Source: Tumidithrix helvetica PCC 7403 (GTDB lineage: Bacteria; Cyanobacteriota; Cyanobacteriia; Pseudanabaenales; Pseudanabaenaceae). Taken from it: a stretch of 18,557 bases of DNA. Position 1 is the stretch's first letter. Every line of letters begins with the position of its first letter. The stretch lies in assembly GCF_965232925.1 (NCBI RefSeq), contig NZ_CBDDRA010000001.1, forward strand, positions 128,001 to 146,557, in the 5' to 3' direction. Positions 4,089 through 18,557 of the stretch are shown piece by piece. Both the position numbers and the translations under genes were made by a program. The notes beneath the pieces were generated by a model. The model was not told where the DNA came from. It searched no databases and worked only from the letters and a program-made list of their open reading frames with translations.

Positions 4089-4332
4089 ACAGACTAAAGG
4101 GTTAATCTGGTAAACCTTAAAATTTTCTGCTAAGTTTCTCGCAGGGACACTAACCTTGGCGTGCTTTGAATTTAGGATTTGACTTGCAAATAACATAAAC
4201 TCTGCCACGACGACGCACAATCTTGCAGTCTTTATGGCGAGTTTTGGCTGATTTTAGAGAGCTAACAACTTTCATTGGACTGTTGGTTACAATTACTAAA
4301 TTTTTTACGCACGGTCTTAAAGCTTAGCATGG

Positions 4333-4465: not shown

Positions 4466-5506
4466 ATGCTGAAGTCACTAAAAATCGAAAATTTTCGTTG
4501 CTTCCGATCGTTCGAGCTTCAGCAACTTGGCAGATTAAATTTGCTTGTGGGCACAAATAACAGTGGTAAAACATCAATTTTAGAAGCCATTCAACTGCTT
4601 TCTTCACGCCCAAATTTTGAGTCATTAGGAGGGTTGATGATTGGTCGTGGTGAATACATCTTAAGCAATGAAAGTGATGGGCAAATAGAGCTAGATATTC
4701 GTCATCTCTTCTATGGCAATGAAATTAATATAGGTAGTACCTTTTCGGTATTCGATAGCAGTCATGACAATGGCGAAAAAATCACTATATCTATAGAAGA
4801 AGAACAAAACCAACAAAGATCTAATTTAATTATAGAAAATTCGCGAATGAAAACAATTCTCCCCCTATCTTCCGAAGGTGGTCTTGTTTTTAACTTGAGT
4901 TACTTTAGACGCTCCCGTAAAGACTTTAAACATCCAAGTCATTTGATCACATCTTCTTCTCTGACAACCGAGACAATGATTGAGTTGTTCGATCAAGTTG
5001 TTCTTACTCCAGAAGAAGATCTTGTTACAGGAGCACTCCAGATTCTTGAACCTAATGTAGAACGTATTGCGATTATTGGCTCTGAAAAATTTAGAAAAAA
5101 TGGAGTACGTAGTGGATTTGTCGTGAGATTCTCAGATAGCGATCAACGTATACCGATTGGGAGTATGGGAGATGGAATGTGGCGAATGTTAGGACTTACA
5201 TTAGCAATTGTTAATGCTAGAAATGGGGTTTTGTTAGTTGATGAAATTGATACTGGACTTCACTTTAGTACCATGTCTAAGATGTGGAAACTAATCTGGG
5301 AAACTGCAAAACGACTTAACGTTCAAGTTTTTGCTACGACCCATAGTAATGACTGCTGGACAAGTTTGGCTGCGATCGCAAGTGCAGAAAACCCAAGCGA
5401 GGAAGGTATTACCATTCAAAGAATTGAAAAAGGAAAACCCCACAGTATTGTCTTTACGGAGCGACAAGTAGCGATCGCGGCTGAAAGAGGAATCGAGGTG
5501 CGATAG
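4466..5506 (+). CDS. ABC/AAA_21-type P-loop ATPase (RecF/SMC-like, OLD/AbiL/PARIS-AriA class): Walker A GTNNSGKTS, Walker B LLVDEID, H-loop ATTHS.
   Basis: Motifs read from the translation. Strong AAGGAG-less start but a clean ATG. Codon usage is AT-rich and HIP1 is almost absent, unlike the neighbouring genes. Confidence 0.8.
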   Translation: MLKSLKIENFRCFRSFELQQLGRLNLLVGTNNSGKTSILEAIQLLSSRPNFESLGGLMIGRGEYILSNESDGQIELDIRHLFYGNEINIGSTFSVFDSSHDNGEKITISIEEEQNQQRSNLIIENSRMKTILPLSSEGGLVFNLSYFRRSRKDFKHPSHLITSSSLTTETMIELFDQVVLTPEEDLVTGALQILEPNVERIAIIGSEKFRKNGVRSGFVVRFSDSDQRIPIGSMGDGMWRMLGLTLAIVNARNGVLLVDEIDTGLHFSTMSKMWKLIWETAKRLNVQVFATTHSNDCWTSLAAIASAENPSEEGITIQRIEKGKPHSIVFTERQVAIAAERGIEVR

Positions 5507-5509
5507 AGA

Positions 5510-6160
5510 ATGGCTAATATCCATCCAAAGATTCTGTTGGTAGAGGGTAAGCAAGATGTGCGGGTCATACCAGAGCTAATTGAAGCAAATGGTGTGGATT
5601 GGGGAACAAGGAAAAGTCCGATCGTATATATTCGTGATTGTGATGGCTATCAAAAGTTAGTCGATCCAGATGTAATCTCGACGGAACTACAGGCTTCTGG
5701 ACTTTCTGCACTTGGCATCATAGTTGATGCAGATGATAATCCTCAAGGGCGTTGGCAGAGTATCAGAAGTGCAAGCATTAGAAGTATCCCCGATCTTCCA
5801 GAAGCTTTACCAGAAGAAGGTTTGATTCATATTACCCCTAGTGGAATTAAGTTTGGAGTATGGATGATGCCAGACAACAAGATGCGCGGTATGTTAGAAA
5901 CTTTTTTGACATACCTGATCCCAGATGGGAATGAATCAATTTGGCAGTTTGCTCAAAAATCAGCCCTAGAAGCCAAAAATAAGGGGGCGATGTTTACGGA
6001 TGCTCATGGTGACAAAGCAAATATTTATACTTGGCTCGCTTGGCAAGATCCGCCAGGACGGCAACTACATCAAGCAATTATGGAACGCCTTTTAGATCCA
6101 AATCATCCCAATGCTCAAATGTTCGTGACATGGTTTAAAGCTTTGTATGGCTTACCTTAA
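5510..6160 (+). CDS. Small partner protein with TOPRIM-like signatures: N-terminal strand with a conserved Glu (ILLVEGKQD) and a later acidic DxD-type motif (GIIVDADDN). DUF4276 / RloB / AriB-like predicted nuclease.
   Basis: The start codon lies 4 nt after the ATPase stop (tagAGAatg), implying translational coupling. E...DxD spacing is typical of TOPRIM. The family assignment is by recollection, not a search. Confidence 0.6.
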   Translation: MANIHPKILLVEGKQDVRVIPELIEANGVDWGTRKSPIVYIRDCDGYQKLVDPDVISTELQASGLSALGIIVDADDNPQGRWQSIRSASIRSIPDLPEALPEEGLIHITPSGIKFGVWMMPDNKMRGMLETFLTYLIPDGNESIWQFAQKSALEAKNKGAMFTDAHGDKANIYTWLAWQDPPGRQLHQAIMERLLDPNHPNAQMFVTWFKALYGLP

Positions 6161-6210
6161 TAAATTTCTCAGAATCGTAATGACCAATATCAACCAACAG
6201 GATTCAAAAT

Positions 6211-8739: not shown

Positions 8740-8852
8740 ATCCCTCAATACCCCACCCAGCCTCCCCTTGAACTAGCCGCGAAGCGACTTCCCGCAGGGT
8801 AGACTACGGTGTACACACAAGTCGTCAAACCGAGTTAAATCAAAGGTTTATT

Positions 8853-8920
8853 GCCCCCTAGCCCCCAATTCTGGGGAAGGATTCTTAAAGTTCCCCAGAA
8901 TTGGGGGATTTAGGGGGCTA
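8853..8920. repeat. Copy 1 of a C5/G5-rich palindromic dispersed element (GCCCCCTAGCCCCCAATTCTGGGGAA-loop-TTCCCCAGAATTGGGGGATTTAGGGGGC), intergenic between the convergent oxygenase and rpmF genes.
   Basis: A stem of about 26 bp with one bulge, read directly. Shares the CCCCC-YRG-CCCCC terminal motif with the elements at 16251 and 17788. Confidence 0.7.
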
Positions 8921-8949
8921 GATCGATTGAAACAAGGTAGTCTGTCTAA

Positions 8950-13894: not shown

Positions 13895-15241
13895 TTGAAC
13901 GCTGAAATTGCTAGGATACGGGTATCGCTCTGGATGTACGGCATGGATCTCGAACTTTCCCGTTTTCTCAAGGCTTGTAACCCCACCCATCCTCTTGATG
14001 CGAGTAATCCAGAGGATCTCAGCTATTATGTCGATCTCTCGTCAGTGCGTGGGGCTGAGTTGATTAAAAGTTTGAAACGGACGATCGCTGTGATTTCGCC
14101 CGATGAGGCAACTTGTCAGTTATTTACGGGGCATATTGGCTGCGGCAAATCAACGGAATTATTGCGACTGAAGAACGAACTAGAAAAGCAAAAGTTTCAC
14201 GTTGCCTATTTTGAGTGCGACAAGCAGCTTGAGTTGAGCGATGTCGATGCTAGCGACGTGTTGCTGGCGATCGCGGGGCAAATTAGTGAGGGACTTGAGA
14301 AGGAAAATATCAGCATCGTTTCCGCATATTTCACAAAGTTATTTGGCGAGCTGAAAGATTTGCTGCAAACCAAGGTCGAGCTGAATGCAAATTTTAAACT
14401 ATCGGTTGGAATTGCCGAAATTACCGCTCAAGCAAAACACAGTCAATCGTTGCGTCGTCAGATTCACGAACGTTTAGAATCACGGACAAACAGCATTATT
14501 ACAGCGATTAATAACGAGTTGTTAAAACCAGCACGAGAAAAGTTAAAAGCAAAGGGCATGAAGGGATTGGTGGTGATTGTGGATAACCTCGATCGCATTG
14601 AAAATCGCATCGACCCTAAAGAACAATCGCGGGCGGGATATCTATTTGTGGAACGGGGCGATCAGTTGCGGGGCTTAGATTGCCATCTGGTCTATACGGT
14701 TCCCTTACTGCTGACCTTCTCGAATGATGCGGCGATCGTTACGGGTCGGTTTGGTACGGAAATTAAGACGCTACCGATGATTCCTGCGCGTTTAGCTGAT
14801 GGGAGTGAATGTGAAGAGGGAATGGCACTATTGCGACAGATCGTGATGGCAAGGGCATTTCCGACGCTTAGCCCCTTGCAAAGGATTGAGGATGTCCATG
14901 TTAAAGCTGTATTTGATTCGCCGCAAACGCTCGATCGCTTGTGTCAGGTGAGTGGAGGGCACGTTCGCAATCTATTTCGGTTTCTGCTGGGTTGTTTGCA
15001 GCAGGACGATCCGCCGATTTCGGCGAGTTTGCTAGAAAGTATCATTGCCAACGAACGCAATAAAATGCGTAAGATTATTACGGATGATGAATGGGAATTG
15101 ATTCGGAAGGTGCATCAGGATAAGCGGCTGAGCGGAGAAGCGCAGTATCAGATGCTGATTAAGAGCCAATTTGTGTTTGAGTATGAATATCAAGGGAATG
15201 GTTGGTTTGATTGCAATCCGATTTTAGATAAACTGTTATAG
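13895..15241 (+). CDS. P-loop NTPase of unknown family (Walker A TGHIGCGKST, Walker B LVVIVDNLD), 448 aa, immediately upstream of the giant NTPase-WD40 gene.
   Basis: Motifs read directly. The track start is a TTG; the real start may be the ATG at 13934 or 13943. Confidence 0.7.
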   Translation: MNAEIARIRVSLWMYGMDLELSRFLKACNPTHPLDASNPEDLSYYVDLSSVRGAELIKSLKRTIAVISPDEATCQLFTGHIGCGKSTELLRLKNELEKQKFHVAYFECDKQLELSDVDASDVLLAIAGQISEGLEKENISIVSAYFTKLFGELKDLLQTKVELNANFKLSVGIAEITAQAKHSQSLRRQIHERLESRTNSIITAINNELLKPAREKLKAKGMKGLVVIVDNLDRIENRIDPKEQSRAGYLFVERGDQLRGLDCHLVYTVPLLLTFSNDAAIVTGRFGTEIKTLPMIPARLADGSECEEGMALLRQIVMARAFPTLSPLQRIEDVHVKAVFDSPQTLDRLCQVSGGHVRNLFRFLLGCLQQDDPPISASLLESIIANERNKMRKIITDDEWELIRKVHQDKRLSGEAQYQMLIKSQFVFEYEYQGNGWFDCNPILDKLL

Positions 15242-15257
15242 GCATCTCGGCTACATC

Positions 15258-18200
15258 ATGGACGAGGAAATCGCATCCACTGCCACGCTCAACCAAAACT
15301 CTCTCAGGCTACTGAAGCGAGTCGCCACCAACGCGCAGGGATTTTCGCTGTCGATCGCTTTGTGTAACTATCGATCGCTGCAAAACCGTTACTTGGCAGA
15401 ATTAACAGCGCAATTGCCCGATCGGGCAATTGCCACAATCGAATTGGAACCCGATGCGACGACATTGCTGACACTGGTTCAGGATTTGATGGAGACGGTC
15501 GCACACGAACCGCCAGAGCGTCAGCCTAAGGTATTGATGGTATTGGGGCTAGAAGAGGTCAAAGATGTTTCTGCGGTACTGCAATCAGCAAATCGCGTGC
15601 GGGAAGAATTTGCCAACTGCCTAGATTTTCCGATGGTGCTCTGGCTCAACGATCGTACGCAGGATATTCTGACTCGCGATGCTAGCGATTTGGCGAACTG
15701 GGTAACAGCGGGGGCGCTCGAGTTTCGGTTTACGCCTGCGGAACTCGTGGGGTTTTTGCGCGAAACTACGGAATCGCTGTTTGCGAGATTTCTCAATCCT
15801 GAAACCGATGGGATGTTTCGCGGGGGGGCGATCGCCAAGGGCTTGCAAAAATTTGAGCTTGAGACCGCCGTGAAGGAGTTACAAGCCTCTGGGCAAGTTC
15901 TCAATCCCGAACTCGCGGCAAATTTGGATTTTGCCTTTGGGTTTTGCGCTTTATTGGAGAAGGAATTCGCCTCAGCAAAGCAGTCGTTTGGCAAGAGTTT
16001 GGAGGTTTGGCGTGGGAGGAACGCGCTAAAGCAGGCGGCTTGTTTGTTTCAGGTCGGGGTGTGCGATCGCACAGTAGCATTTCACCGTCGCTATGATAAG
16101 GTTCCGTTTTATCGCCTTGCGAGGGAGAGTTTTGCCGAAGCAATCGCGATTTTTCGAGATTTGGGGCGATCGGATTTGGTGGCAGAGTATCTTAATTTTT
16201 TGATGGCTGTGGTGGAGGATTTGGCACGGTTGGATAGGGATTTGAAGAGATCCCCCCCAGCCCCCCTTAATAAGGGGGGAGAATTTATTAGGGGTAAAGA
16301 GTTATTTGAGGAATTGGAGGGGTTGGCGCGGGAGGCGTTGGGACTGCGGCAGCGGTATCCAAATTTGTTGAAGGAGGCGCACGATCGCGGCATGATGGCG
16401 GCGGTAAAGATTGCGTTTGGGGAATATGTCGAGGCGCAGCAGTTTGCGGAGGGGGCACTGGCGCTATATCGAGAGGCGGAGAGGCAGCAGTTGCCCAATT
16501 TGGCTTGGACGCGACGTTATATCTATGGGCTGTATGAGATTTGGTTGGCGCGAGCTTTGGCAGGGCAGGGCAAGAGGGCAGAGGCGATCGCGGGTTTAGA
16601 GGGGGTGCGATCGCAGTGGCGGCATCAGTACGACGCGCAGATCTATGTGGGGGTGCTGGAAGAGTTGCGATCGCAATACACGCAGGCGGGGCGCTATCTC
16701 GATGCCTTTCATACAAAGCAGCACCAGCGATCGGTGGAGCAGCAGTATGGGTTGCGGGCGTTTATCGGGGCGGGAATGCTGCATCCCAGTCGGGAGGAGG
16801 TCGATCCTGCGACGGCGGCGATCGCGTTGCGGCAACCCGATGGCATTGCGGTGGAAATCGTGGCATCGGGCAGAAAGCAAAATGTGGAGGAACTGGTGGA
16901 ACGGATTCGCCAGCCGCGCTATCCCTTGACGGTGATTCATGGGGATTCGGGGGCGGGAAAGAGTTCGATTTTGAATGGTGGGGTCGTGCCTGCGTTGCGA
17001 TCGCGGGAAACGTTGGATGGTCGCAAGGTGCTGGTGTTGACGGTAAATACCTATAAGGAATGGAGTCGCGAGATTGAGCGGCAGTTGCAGGAGTTTTTTG
17101 GTGGTGCGCGTCCCGAGTTGAATCCGATCGAGCATTTTAAGCGCAATGTTGAGGAGAACTATCTGACCGTGTTGGTGTTCGATCAGTTTGAGGATTTCTT
17201 TTTTAAAAAGGAGGATTTTGCCGATCGCTTGCCGTTTTACAAATTCCTGAGAGCCTGTTTGCATACGGATTTTGTCCGAGTGGTGCTGTCGCTGCGCGAG
17301 GACTATCTGCATTATTTATTGGAATGCGATCGCGCCGTGAATCTAGAAAAGGTCGAGAACGATATTCTCGGCAAGCAGATTCGCTATTATTTGGGCGATT
17401 TTACGCCAGAGGAGGCAAGGCGGGTGATTGAGTCGCTGACGGCAAGGGCGGAGGTGAAGCTGGATGCGGATCTGTGCGATCGCTTGGTGGTGGATTTGAC
17501 GGGCGATCGGGGTAGGGTGTTGCCGATTGAGTTGCAGGTAGCGGGGGCGCAACTAGAGTCTGAGGAACCACAAATTTCGACGTTGGCGCAATATTTGGCA
17601 TTGACAAGCGATGTCTCGCAGCGTAAACCCAGTGAGGTTTTAGTGGAGCGCTGGCTAGAGAATGTGGTGAAGGATTGTGGCGAGGGAAATCAAGAGTTGG
17701 CGCAAAGGGTGCTGTACGCGTTGACGGGAATGGAGGAGAAGCGACCGCAAAAAACGCAGGAGGAATTGGCGGCTGAGTTACTGACATCTCCCCCTGCCCC
17801 TCTCCTAAAAGGCGAGGGGAGTAAGAATGAGTCTTTGCTCCCCCTCTCCCATGGGGAGAGGGGGCTGGGGGGAGATGTCAATCTCGAACTGGTGCTGGCG
17901 GTTTTGGTGGGGTCGGGTTTGGCGTTTCGGGTGAGCAGTACGCCAGAGGATCGCTATCAGTTGATTCACGATTATCTGACGGGCTTTATACGGAAGAAGT
18001 ATGGGATTGATGTGAATGCTGAGTTGAGAAAAGAGCGGAAGCGGCGGGAATTGGCGGAACTGGCAAGAGAACAGGCGGAAAAAGAGAAGGAGATATTTGC
18101 AGTTGCGAATCGTAAAGCTGGACAAAGAGTTCGGATCGGTTCAATTATTTTAGGAATTGCATCTATTGCTGCGATCGGAATTAGCATTTATGCAAGCAAA

Positions 18201-18557
18201 GCATTTCAGGCTTCGCAAGAAGCCATAGCGATCACGCAAATCGAAAAACAGAGTGCTGAAGCGGAGAGACTATTTAAAACCCAAGAATTCCAAGCACTTC
18301 TACCCGCAATGAGAGCGACAAAACTGTTAAAGGCGATCGTCAAGGATTCAATGCATACCGAACAATATCCTTCTGTTAGTCCTCTTGGGGCTTTGCAATT
18401 AATTTTGAGAGATGGACAAGAACGCTTACAATTTCGGGCAACTGGTATTGTATTTTCGCCCGATGGTACGAAGCTGGCGACGAGTGGCAGTGACGGCACG
18501 GCTAGGATTTGGGATCTACAGGGCAACCAGATTGCGATTCTCAAAGGGCATCAAGGG
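15258..18557 (+). CDS. Large NLR-like multidomain protein, 3'-truncated at the window end (at least 1100 aa). An N-terminal domain of unknown function is followed by TPR-like helices, a STAND-class P-loop NTPase (Walker A VIHGDSGAGKSSIL; Walker B LTVLVFDQFEDFFF) and a helical region. A coiled coil (ELRKERKRRELAELAREQAEKEKE) and a predicted TM helix (VRIGSIILGIASIAAIGISIYA) come next, then the first WD40 repeat (IVFSPDGTKLATSGSDGTARIWDLQG).
   Basis: Hand translation in frame 0 from the ATG at 15258, 17 nt after the upstream stop, to nt 18557 found no stop; the frame was re-checked at 15597, 16551, 16938, 17163, 17820, 18090 and 18528. The frame-0 stop at 15225 precludes an earlier start. The ORF track does not list it because it has no in-window stop. 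The minus-strand ORFs listed here (RRRRR / PPP-rich) are antisense artefacts. Confidence 0.8.
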   Translation, partial: MDEEIASTATLNQNSLRLLKRVATNAQGFSLSIALCNYRSLQNRYLAELTAQLPDRAIATIELEPDATTLLTLVQDLMETVAHEPPERQPKVLMVLGLEEVKDVSAVLQSANRVREEFANCLDFPMVLWLNDRTQDILTRDASDLANWVTAGALEFRFTPAELVGFLRETTESLFARFLNPETDGMFRGGAIAKGLQKFELETAVKELQASGQVLNPELAANLDFAFGFCALLEKEFASAKQSFGKSLEVWRGRNALKQAACLFQVGVCDRTVAFHRRYDKVPFYRLARESFAEAIAIFRDLGRSDLVAEYLNFLMAVVEDLARLDRDLKRSPPAPLNKGGEFIRGKELFEELEGLAREALGLRQRYPNLLKEAHDRGMMAAVKIAFGEYVEAQQFAEGALALYREAERQQLPNLAWTRRYIYGLYEIWLARALAGQGKRAEAIAGLEGVRSQWRHQYDAQIYVGVLEELRSQYTQAGRYLDAFHTKQHQRSVEQQYGLRAFIGAGMLHPSREEVDPATAAIALRQPDGIAVEIVASGRKQNVEELVERIRQPRYPLTVIHGDSGAGKSSILNGGVVPALRSRETLDGRKVLVLTVNTYKEWSREIERQLQEFFGGARPELNPIEHFKRNVEENYLTVLVFDQFEDFFFKKEDFADRLPFYKFLRACLHTDFVRVVLSLREDYLHYLLECDRAVNLEKVENDILGKQIRYYLGDFTPEEARRVIESLTARAEVKLDADLCDRLVVDLTGDRGRVLPIELQVAGAQLESEEPQISTLAQYLALTSDVSQRKPSEVLVERWLENVVKDCGEGNQELAQRVLYALTGMEEKRPQKTQEELAAELLTSPPAPLLKGEGSKNESLLPLSHGERGLGGDVNLELVLAVLVGSGLAFRVSSTPEDRYQLIHDYLTGFIRKKYGIDVNAELRKERKRRELAELAREQAEKEKEIFAVANRKAGQRVRIGSIILGIASIAAIGISIYASKAFQASQEAIAITQIEKQSAEAERLFKTQEFQALLPAMRATKLLKAIVKDSMHTEQYPSVSPLGALQLILRDGQERLQFRATGIVFSPDGTKLATSGSDGTARIWDLQGNQIAILKGHQG
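16251..16281 (+). repeat. Copy 2 (short form) of the C5/G5 palindromic element, TCCCCCCCAGCCCCCCTTAATAAGGGGGGAG, inserted in frame in the large NTPase gene and encoding SPPAPLNKGGE.
   Basis: The palindrome CCCCCCTTA-A-TAAGGGGGG read directly; the reading frame is preserved. Confidence 0.6.
17788..17874 (+). repeat. Copy 3 (long form, two hairpins) of the C5/G5 palindromic element, inserted in frame in the large NTPase gene and encoding SPPAPLLKGEGSKNESLLPLSHGERGLGGD.
   Basis: Hairpin 1 is CCCCTCTCC-TAAAA-GGCGAGGGG. Hairpin 2 is CCCCCTCTCCC-ATG-GGGAGAGGGGG (11-bp perfect stem). Terminal motifs are TCCCCCTGCCCC and GGGGGCTGGGGGGA. Same frame and orientation as copy 2. Confidence 0.7.

Follow-up and report, generated by a model that had tools for sequence, protein, structure and literature searches.

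A split OLD-like ATPase/TOPRIM gene pair of Tumidithrix helvetica PCC 7403 is a chromosomal copy of the candidate defence system PDC-M38

The stretch of DNA analysed here (18,557 nt, hereafter the window) comes from the cyanobacterium Tumidithrix helvetica PCC 7403 (Pseudanabaenaceae) and was read with a default list of its open reading frames (ORFs) of at least 60 aa. It holds two adjacent genes, referred to as A and B, which make up a cyanobacterial module of the split OLD-like ATPase/TOPRIM kind, known before from a catalogue of candidates. Database entries from this strain are 100% identical to both proteins. The genes and their junction are:

4466..5506, plus strand: gene A, 346 aa, ATG start; ABC/SMC-type ATPase, Pfam AAA_15/AAA_21, PADLOC PDC-M38A.
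5510..6160, plus strand: gene B, 216 aa, ATG start; DUF3226, OLD-type TOPRIM plus helical domain, PADLOC PDC-M38B.
5495..5509, plus strand: A/B coupling junction; GAGG at 5495-5498, TAG stop at 5504-5506, AGA, then the B ATG at 5510.

Both ORFs had been delineated in a preliminary description of the same DNA and are as described there; their Pfam matches, together with hundreds to thousands of homologues, place them far beyond chance as real genes. They form a translationally coupled gene pair. As read from the sequence, the A stop codon and the B ATG are separated by 3 nt, and a Shine-Dalgarno-like GAGG lies 11 nt 5′ of the B ATG, within the final codons of A, which encode I-E-V-R (window 5492-5503). 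This C-terminus is invariant in 38 sequences, and the E-V-R ending is shared by a plasmid homologue with only 32% identity to A (L088 3996-4007). Because B has its ribosome-binding site in these E-V-R codons, they may be constrained at the level of the protein, of the RNA or of both.

In gene A the Walker A motif, a signature-like motif, the Walker B motif, the D-loop and the H-loop are all present in order. Their conservation was taken from an alignment of 38 homologues, and the features of the gene are as follows:

4550..4576, plus strand: Walker A/P-loop G29-T-N-N-S-G-K-T-S37; G29 and N31-S37 invariant.
4640..4960, plus strand: hypervariable, indel-bearing middle of A, about residues 59-165; proposed to be an insert for recognising triggers or for oligomerisation.
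5162..5176, plus strand: ABC signature-like motif S233-M-G-D-G237; M234, G235 and G237 invariant, S233 and D236 at least 90%.
5228..5251, plus strand: Walker B and D-loop V255-L-L-V-D-E-I-D262; D259 and D262 invariant, E260 at least 90%.
5333..5347, plus strand: H-loop A290-T-T-H-S294; A290, T291, T292 and H293 invariant.

The putative signature motif was assigned from its position relative to Walker B. Three of the motifs had been quoted earlier (GTNNSGKTS at residues 29-37, DEID at 259-262 and TTHS at 291-294), and the reading of A as an AAA_21/ABC-like ATPase is borne out by Pfam (AAA_15, 2e-30; AAA_21, 1e-20; SMC_N, 1e-12) and by the Foldseek neighbours of its AlphaFold model, namely PtuA, an SMC head, Rad50, TsOLD and GajA (E about 1e-9 to 1e-8), the model being used just for this general ABC/SMC neighbourhood and not for details of the insert because of its poor predicted local distance difference test score (pLDDT). 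A is an intact ABC/SMC-type ATPase of the SMC/Rad50/OLD branch. Its best PADLOC match is PDC-M38A (PDLC04611, 1.2e-93, 313 bits), with four more M38A models also matching, followed by AbiLi (PDLC02336, 5.6e-51, 172 bits, model positions 1-340 of 340) and the AriA models (104 and 99 bits, about 1e-30), with NsnB, GajA and PtuA lower. Along the protein, identity to relatives is 25-42% over residues 101-160 and 80-94% in the ATPase core. The comparison with the copy at the corresponding genomic position on a metagenome contig (L083) gave 85% identity for residues 1-58, 36% for 59-165, 61% for 166-232 and 93% for 233-346, and nucleotide similarity between the two is lost over 4657-4978 (blastn).

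The residues of gene B were compared over 50 diverse family members:

5534..5557, plus strand: TOPRIM strand-1 motif L9-L-V-E-G-K-Q-D16; E12 in 50/50, position 16 D or E in 45/50.
5726..5734, plus strand: TOPRIM DxD, D73-A-D75; D73 in 50/50, D75 in 45/50 with N in the other 5.
5867..5899, plus strand: M120-P-D-N...G127...E130 block; M120, P121, G127 and E130 in 50/50, D122 in 48/50, N123 in 47/50.
6014..6016, plus strand: K169, in the helical half of B; K in 49/50, R in 1/50.

G116, W118 and W208 are further invariant residues in this set. The first two motifs correspond to the LLVEGKQD (residues 9-16) and IVDADDN (71-77) on which B had been called TOPRIM-like, and this still holds, with motifs of the OLD type, a weak OLD match in Foldseek and the features of a TOPRIM domain, that is, a first-strand Glu, a DxD in a later strand and a Rossmann-like beta-alpha core. 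The families suggested at the outset fared differently for the two proteins: AAA_21/AAA_15 was right for A, whereas DUF4276, DUF4435 and RloB were not right for B, which belongs to DUF3226 (Pfam, 1.8e-69 over its full length, with OLD-like_TOPRIM sub-threshold). In PADLOC, B matches the PDC-M38B models PDLC04624 (2.1e-75, positions 11-218 of 220) and PDLC04623 (6.1e-35), and at E values up to 1 neither PADLOC nor Pfam gave an AriB, AbiLii, RloB, DUF4435 or HEC-01B match; NCBIfam has no model for it. Among the 50 diverse members, 18 match Pfam OLD-like_TOPRIM (best E 4e-5) and one matches DUF4435 (E 0.31). When B alone and the family profile were searched against the sequences of solved structures, only noise was returned save for a marginal TOPRIM protein, 1t6t (E 0.61). 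An uncharacterised structural-genomics protein of Pyrococcus horikoshii, PH0156 (PDB 2p62), has 18% identity to B and was missed by the family profile. For B, the fold comparison is the only informative search against solved structures.

The nuclease centre of BpOLD comprises E400, E404, D455, D457, T506, E508 and K562 (PMC6755086). E12 and D16 of B share the +4 spacing of E400/E404, and D73-x-D75 compares with D455/D457; these four residues are assigned from the canonical TOPRIM motifs, E12 being the predicted catalytic Glu. The MPDN...E130 block is proposed to provide second-metal ligands equivalent to T506/E508, and K169 may likewise be the equivalent of K562. B is described as a small protein with a TOPRIM and a probable helical domain, the conserved acidic residues and lysine of which resemble the OLD two-metal nuclease centre. 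Its family is large (915 clusters at 90% identity, 2,178 representatives at 50% identity) and its members are nearly all stand-alone proteins of about 215-225 aa. Among the 150 best representatives the range is 101-274 aa, mostly about 210-230 aa, and there is no ATPase-TOPRIM fusion.

With one genome scanned per species, relatives of B turned up at no fewer than 567 loci, mostly in cyanobacteria and also in cable bacteria and Planctomycetes; neighbourhoods were examined in 80 of them, which were fetched (L002-L081). In 80/80, the gene immediately 5′ of B, in the same orientation, is an A homologue, at full length where the contig allows, in keeping with the earlier description of a coupled two-gene module. 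No second A-like ATPase was found in the flanks of these 80 loci, and in none of them do the flanking genes of the window stand beside the pair. Five further annotated loci (L083-L087) have the same A-then-B pair in five different contexts, and the 3-nt gap recurs in these and in L001. More distant relatives, with B 24-35% identical, are carried by nine proteobacterial plasmids, where the ATPase and DUF3226 genes overlap, and these match the PDC-M38 models even better than the window pair does. There too, at 25-32% identity, the two genes have the A-then-B arrangement. On a 6.4-kb ColE10/MOBQ plasmid, of which 5.2 kb were examined, the pair (ATPase 32% identical to A, PDC-M38A 2e-139) is the sole cargo in that part beside genes of the mobilisation region, and the copy on an Acinetobacter plasmid adjoins a RelE/ParE toxin-antitoxin pair. 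The relationships of B are discordant with taxonomy, the window protein being 83% identical to a Nostocales copy and only 61-69% identical to copies in Pseudanabaena, a genus of the same taxonomic family. A and B are an obligate, self-contained and horizontally mobile unit.

A DUF7734 gene, which follows B, was considered as a third component of this unit. It starts about 50 nt after B both in the window (6161-6210) and in L083 (7952-8000), with no predicted terminator between them, so that in both genomes one transcript may cover the cassette and DUF7734. In L083, which is from a more distant relative, the A-B-DUF7734 arrangement is that of the window while the flanks are otherwise different. 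We rejected it as a component because it is not beside the pair in the other 80 loci and is present without the pair in Tumidithrix elongata.

Comparison with a related cyanobacterium, which had been proposed as a way to see whether the pair is variably present, was possible at the syntenic locus of T. elongata RA019 (L082). There the DUF7734-UbiE-RPE65-L32-CCG-Mur block is syntenic with the window at 92-93% nucleotide identity (blastn), and the A/B pair is not in the gene map. The edge of the cassette on this side is as follows:

6156..6160: right cassette edge; T. elongata homology resumes at 6156, 5 nt before the end of the B stop codon.

The place of A and B in L082 (5510-7777, minus strand) is taken by two unrelated genes of 155 and 576 aa, which have no Pfam or PADLOC match. 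The 120 B homologues listed, the least similar of which are about 70% identical, include no T. elongata protein, though the genome is in the database. The G+C content at third codon positions (GC3) is 0.31 in A and 0.34 in B and ranges from 0.42 to 0.52 in the neighbouring genes, except for a short L36 gene (0.33). The cassette is therefore patchily distributed and compositionally foreign, and its absence from T. elongata, its GC3, the taxonomy-discordant B and the differing contexts taken together indicate horizontal transfer and loss.

These observations also bear on the question of whether the pair could be a housekeeping one that processes or repairs nucleic acids, either as a RecF/Rad50-like ATPase with a TOPRIM nuclease or as an RNase M5-like RNA maturase. 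The N-terminal part of A does show weak matches to RecF, RecN and Rad50 models, the active sites of OLD-type TOPRIM proteins resemble those of RNase M5 and DnaG, and the window copy has housekeeping neighbours, as had been remarked earlier (EgtD-like, L36, DUF7734, UbiE-family and RPE65-family genes). However, the NCBIfam matches of A (RecF, PtuA, MAD3 and Rad50) are confined to the P-loop region and score far under the family cut-offs (50 bits against 172 for RecF), the context differs at every locus and the congener lacks the pair at the syntenic position and has no B homologue of at least 70% identity among the matches listed. To this are added the foreign GC3, the plasmid-borne copies and a phylogeny incongruent with taxonomy. 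A conserved housekeeping pair, the case named in the preliminary description as the one to set against a defence module, is ruled out since none of the 80 loci shares the window context, and a housekeeping function in the wider sense is largely refuted, with hardly any probability left to it in our estimation.

The earlier proposal of a candidate anti-phage module agrees with the PADLOC results, in which both genes match PDC-M38. This is one of 145 predicted 'phage defence candidates' (Payne et al. bioRxiv 10.1101/2024.01.29.577857), and its basis is 'guilt by embedding', that is, the finding of cassettes, three of which were merged, inside BREX, DISARM or type I restriction-modification (RM) systems (10.1101/2024.01.29.577857). 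The sequence and synteny features of PDC-M38 are all three found in the window, namely a match to the A model, a match to the B model and adjacent genes on the same strand in A-then-B order. The window pair is a cyanobacterial, chromosomal and non-embedded copy of this candidate system, from which structurally nothing differs.

As to the surroundings of the cyanobacterial copies, the scan of neighbours for defence genes covered the upstream ORFs of the 80 loci, and no RM, BREX or DISARM embedding was seen among the 105 upstream neighbours. The large same-strand upstream ORFs encode MetH, topoisomerase I, aminoacyl-tRNA synthetases and similar proteins. About 14% of the 105 neighbours match known or candidate defence models, of which Uma2/PDC-S03 accounts for 11-12 and pAgo, a type IIG RM, IetA, PDC-M37B and DolB for one each. 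Uma2 is a putative restriction endonuclease family, and Uma2/PDC-S03 is abundant in cyanobacteria anyway. In a 7.6-Mb cyanobacterial genome (L086, 4600-6803), a PARIS pair immediately precedes the PDC-M38 pair in the same orientation, so that two ABC-ATPase/TOPRIM systems stand in tandem; it consists of an AriA-like protein of 451 aa and an AriB/DUF4435 protein of 283 aa (PADLOC AriB, 7.5e-25).

The pair belongs to the class that combines an ABC-ATPase with an OLD-type TOPRIM nuclease, as do P2 Old, GajA of Gabija, AriA/AriB of PARIS and AbiL. The kinship to PARIS, AbiL and RloA/RloB that had been suggested holds for the split ATPase and TOPRIM architecture and does not extend to strict membership of PARIS or AbiL, since no AriB or AbiLii model matches B. 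PARIS has the same two-gene order of ATPase then TOPRIM, an AAA_15/21 ATPase and the same E...DxD effector core, and part of AriA is poorly conserved and thought to recognise triggers, which may be compared with the variable middle of A. However, the present proteins are smaller (A 346 aa against 55 kDa for AriA, B 216 aa against 35 kDa for AriB) and AriA is not the best family for A (104/99 bits against 313 for PDC-M38A and 172 for AbiLi). A resembles an AriA-like protein at the Walker motifs only, and a profile comparison of B with an AriB-like protein (hhalign) gave a probability of 7.6% in which only the E and DxD strands align. A hexamer:trimer assembly, an Ocr trigger and a tRNA-Lys target are known for PARIS. 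AbiL of Lactococcus plasmids (AbiLi with an RloB-type AbiLii) is likewise two-gene and plasmid-associated, with an OLD-like TOPRIM second gene. A matches AbiLi over its full length, though under PDC-M38A, and B belongs to a different TOPRIM family, DUF3226, so that by family matches the pair would be only half AbiL. In OLD and GajA, the ATPase and TOPRIM parts are fused in 500-600 aa, whereas here they make up two genes of 562 aa in total; the pair is not a canonical OLD nuclease (classes 1-3) because the parts are separate genes with a stop codon between them. A GajB-like helicase or UvrD partner was not seen nearby in the window. The partners annotated in a published tree of AAA15/21 defence ATPases are TOPRIM-Old, DUF4435, RloB and DUF4276, and DUF3226 is not among them; PADLOC thus seems to be the only place where this branch is described.

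The architecture and the catalytic potential of the pair are established. By analogy with its characterised relatives, we consider it probable, at a level well short of certainty, that the pair is an abortive-infection module acting like PARIS, AbiL and OLD, in which an ATPase sensor restrains a TOPRIM nuclease. A would oligomerise and keep B in an inactive complex until its hypervariable middle sensed a phage-derived cue in an ATP-dependent manner. B would then be freed or activated as a Mg2+-dependent nuclease and could cut an essential nucleic acid, either tRNA, as do AriB and P2 Old, or DNA, as do GajA and BpOLD, and the cutting would arrest the infected cell. There are precedents for these steps: in PARIS, a hexamer of AriA holds AriB, and ATP-dependent trigger binding frees AriB, which dimerises and cleaves tRNAs; in P2 Old an inactive tetramer opens into a tRNase; BpOLD and GajA cut DNA; and in NetFlax assays AAA:TOPRIM_OLD pairs behave as antitoxin and toxin. 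The hypervariable middle of A may be an arms-race signature, and it parallels the poorly conserved parts of AriA that recognise triggers.

In another reading the pair, though real, is a decaying or inactive passenger in this genome, in which A is the shortest of its clade and might be non-functional. A is without about 12 residues that are common to most relatives, after residues 114, 126 and 156, and owing to these missing residues it matches its best PADLOC model in two pieces. However, neither reading frame is interrupted, the ATPase and TOPRIM motifs are all kept and the deletions are confined to a region that varies in length across the whole family, and we regard decay as improbable.

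Several observations weigh against an abortive-infection role. The formation of a complex, the trigger and the target are proposed entirely by analogy, and the defence phenotype itself we infer in the same manner. The AlphaFold models are of low confidence, with a pLDDT of 62 for A and of 71.8 for B, where residues 1-120 are at 75-91 and residues 121-200 at about 50, and this is why the assignments of the second-metal ligands and of the lysine in B are sequence-based. The best Foldseek match of B, the C-terminal region of a Xanthomonas OLD protein, is weak (E 9.7e-3). HEC-01, in which an ABC ATPase is likewise accompanied by a separate TOPRIM protein, gave no protection in the single study that tested it. 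The window copy and most of its relatives are solo among housekeeping genes and outside defence islands, and no B homologue was found in 50,697 phage records. A search of the full-text literature on DUF3226 and PDC-M38 found no paper; the same search on PF11536 and PH0156 also found none.

The solitary position of most copies would suit a further explanation, in which the pair is a toxin-antitoxin-like addiction module, with B as a toxic nuclease and A as its neutraliser, that serves mainly to stabilise plasmids or genomic islets and not to defend against phages. The mobilizable ColE-type plasmid of 6.4 kb, in the examined part of which the pair is the only cargo beside mobilisation-region genes, and the Acinetobacter plasmid, on which it stands beside RelE/ParE, are both consistent with such a role, as is the toxin-antitoxin behaviour of AAA and TOPRIM_OLD pairs in NetFlax. 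However, toxin-antitoxin and abortive-infection roles are not exclusive, and PARIS has both. Changing triggers account for a hypervariable insert in A more readily than simple neutralisation does, and a large ATP-hydrolysing antitoxin would be unusual for pure addiction. Addiction as the main function seems unlikely to us, if still a good deal less so than decay, and an abortive-infection module remains the reading that we prefer.

The remainder of the window contains no other defence system recognisable in a PADLOC scan, and no tRNA genes or Rfam families. The flanks hold genes for a hybrid histidine kinase, a YkuD transpeptidase and an EgtD-like methyltransferase, then the ribosomal protein L36 gene, and, beyond B, genes for DUF7734, a UbiE-type methyltransferase, an RPE65-type oxygenase, a CCG-domain protein and a Mur-ligase-family protein. 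Three further features were located:

4150-4275, minus strand: ribosomal protein L36 gene, 41 aa, Pfam Ribosomal_L36 2.9e-20; between the EgtD-like gene and A.
8801-8943, about 140 nt: element resembling a miniature inverted-repeat transposable element (MITE), with 12-nt imperfect terminal inverted repeats at 8801-8812/8932-8943.
13895-15241, plus strand: P-loop NTPase, 448 aa; weak Pfam AAA_22, KAP and STAND-like matches, weak PADLOC PDC-S20 match (1e-7).

The L36 gene is absent from the ORF list because it is shorter than the default minimum, and with it in place the apparent intergenic gap 5′ of A shrinks to a divergent promoter region of about 190 nt. A 16-nt direct repeat at 4317 and 6135 (14/16 matching) was considered as an insertion scar and rejected, since about 0.7 such pairs are estimated by chance in the region. 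The MITE-like element carries a perfect 17-nt hairpin (8862-8878/8891-8907) and has no Rfam or tRNA match. T. elongata lacks it at a locus that is otherwise syntenic, the gap in the alignment spanning window 8771-8947, and a copy with 88.6% identity lies in unrelated intergenic DNA of L083 (3435-3566). Beyond 12075 the window has lost its synteny with T. elongata, and the P-loop NTPase gene lies in that part. Minus-strand ORFs of 157, 129, 238, 128, 106 and 112 aa succeed one another at 15300-18550 and have no Pfam or PADLOC match.

The analysis confirms an existing database prediction and adds comparative-genomic support to it; current knowledge is left unchanged. More tentatively, and with chances that we would put at about one in three, pairs of an ATPase and a DUF3226 protein may form a distinct and minimal 'fifth class' of OLD-like immune systems, of about 560 aa in two genes, which was overlooked in the published AAA15/21 trees because these did not annotate DUF3226. 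Since the cyanobacterial clade is found in at least 567 species-level genomes and its B proteins are 70-84% identical across orders, such a class could be a widespread abortive-infection system against cyanophages, in which a swappable ATPase insert would perhaps set the trigger specificity, and its trigger or target could differ from those of PARIS and Old.

The anti-cyanophage defences of cyanobacteria are poorly characterised, and the cassette, being common and well conserved in these organisms, lends itself to practical tests. In A, a conserved ATPase core is clearly set off from a hypervariable insert, which gives a straightforward handle on phage recognition by OLD-like sensors. Should the pair prove to work in defence, few ABC-ATPase/TOPRIM immune modules would be smaller, and Pfam DUF3226 would gain a function; its significance would grow if it turned out to respond to a novel trigger, to attack a novel target or to contribute strongly to the resistance of cyanobacteria against their phages.

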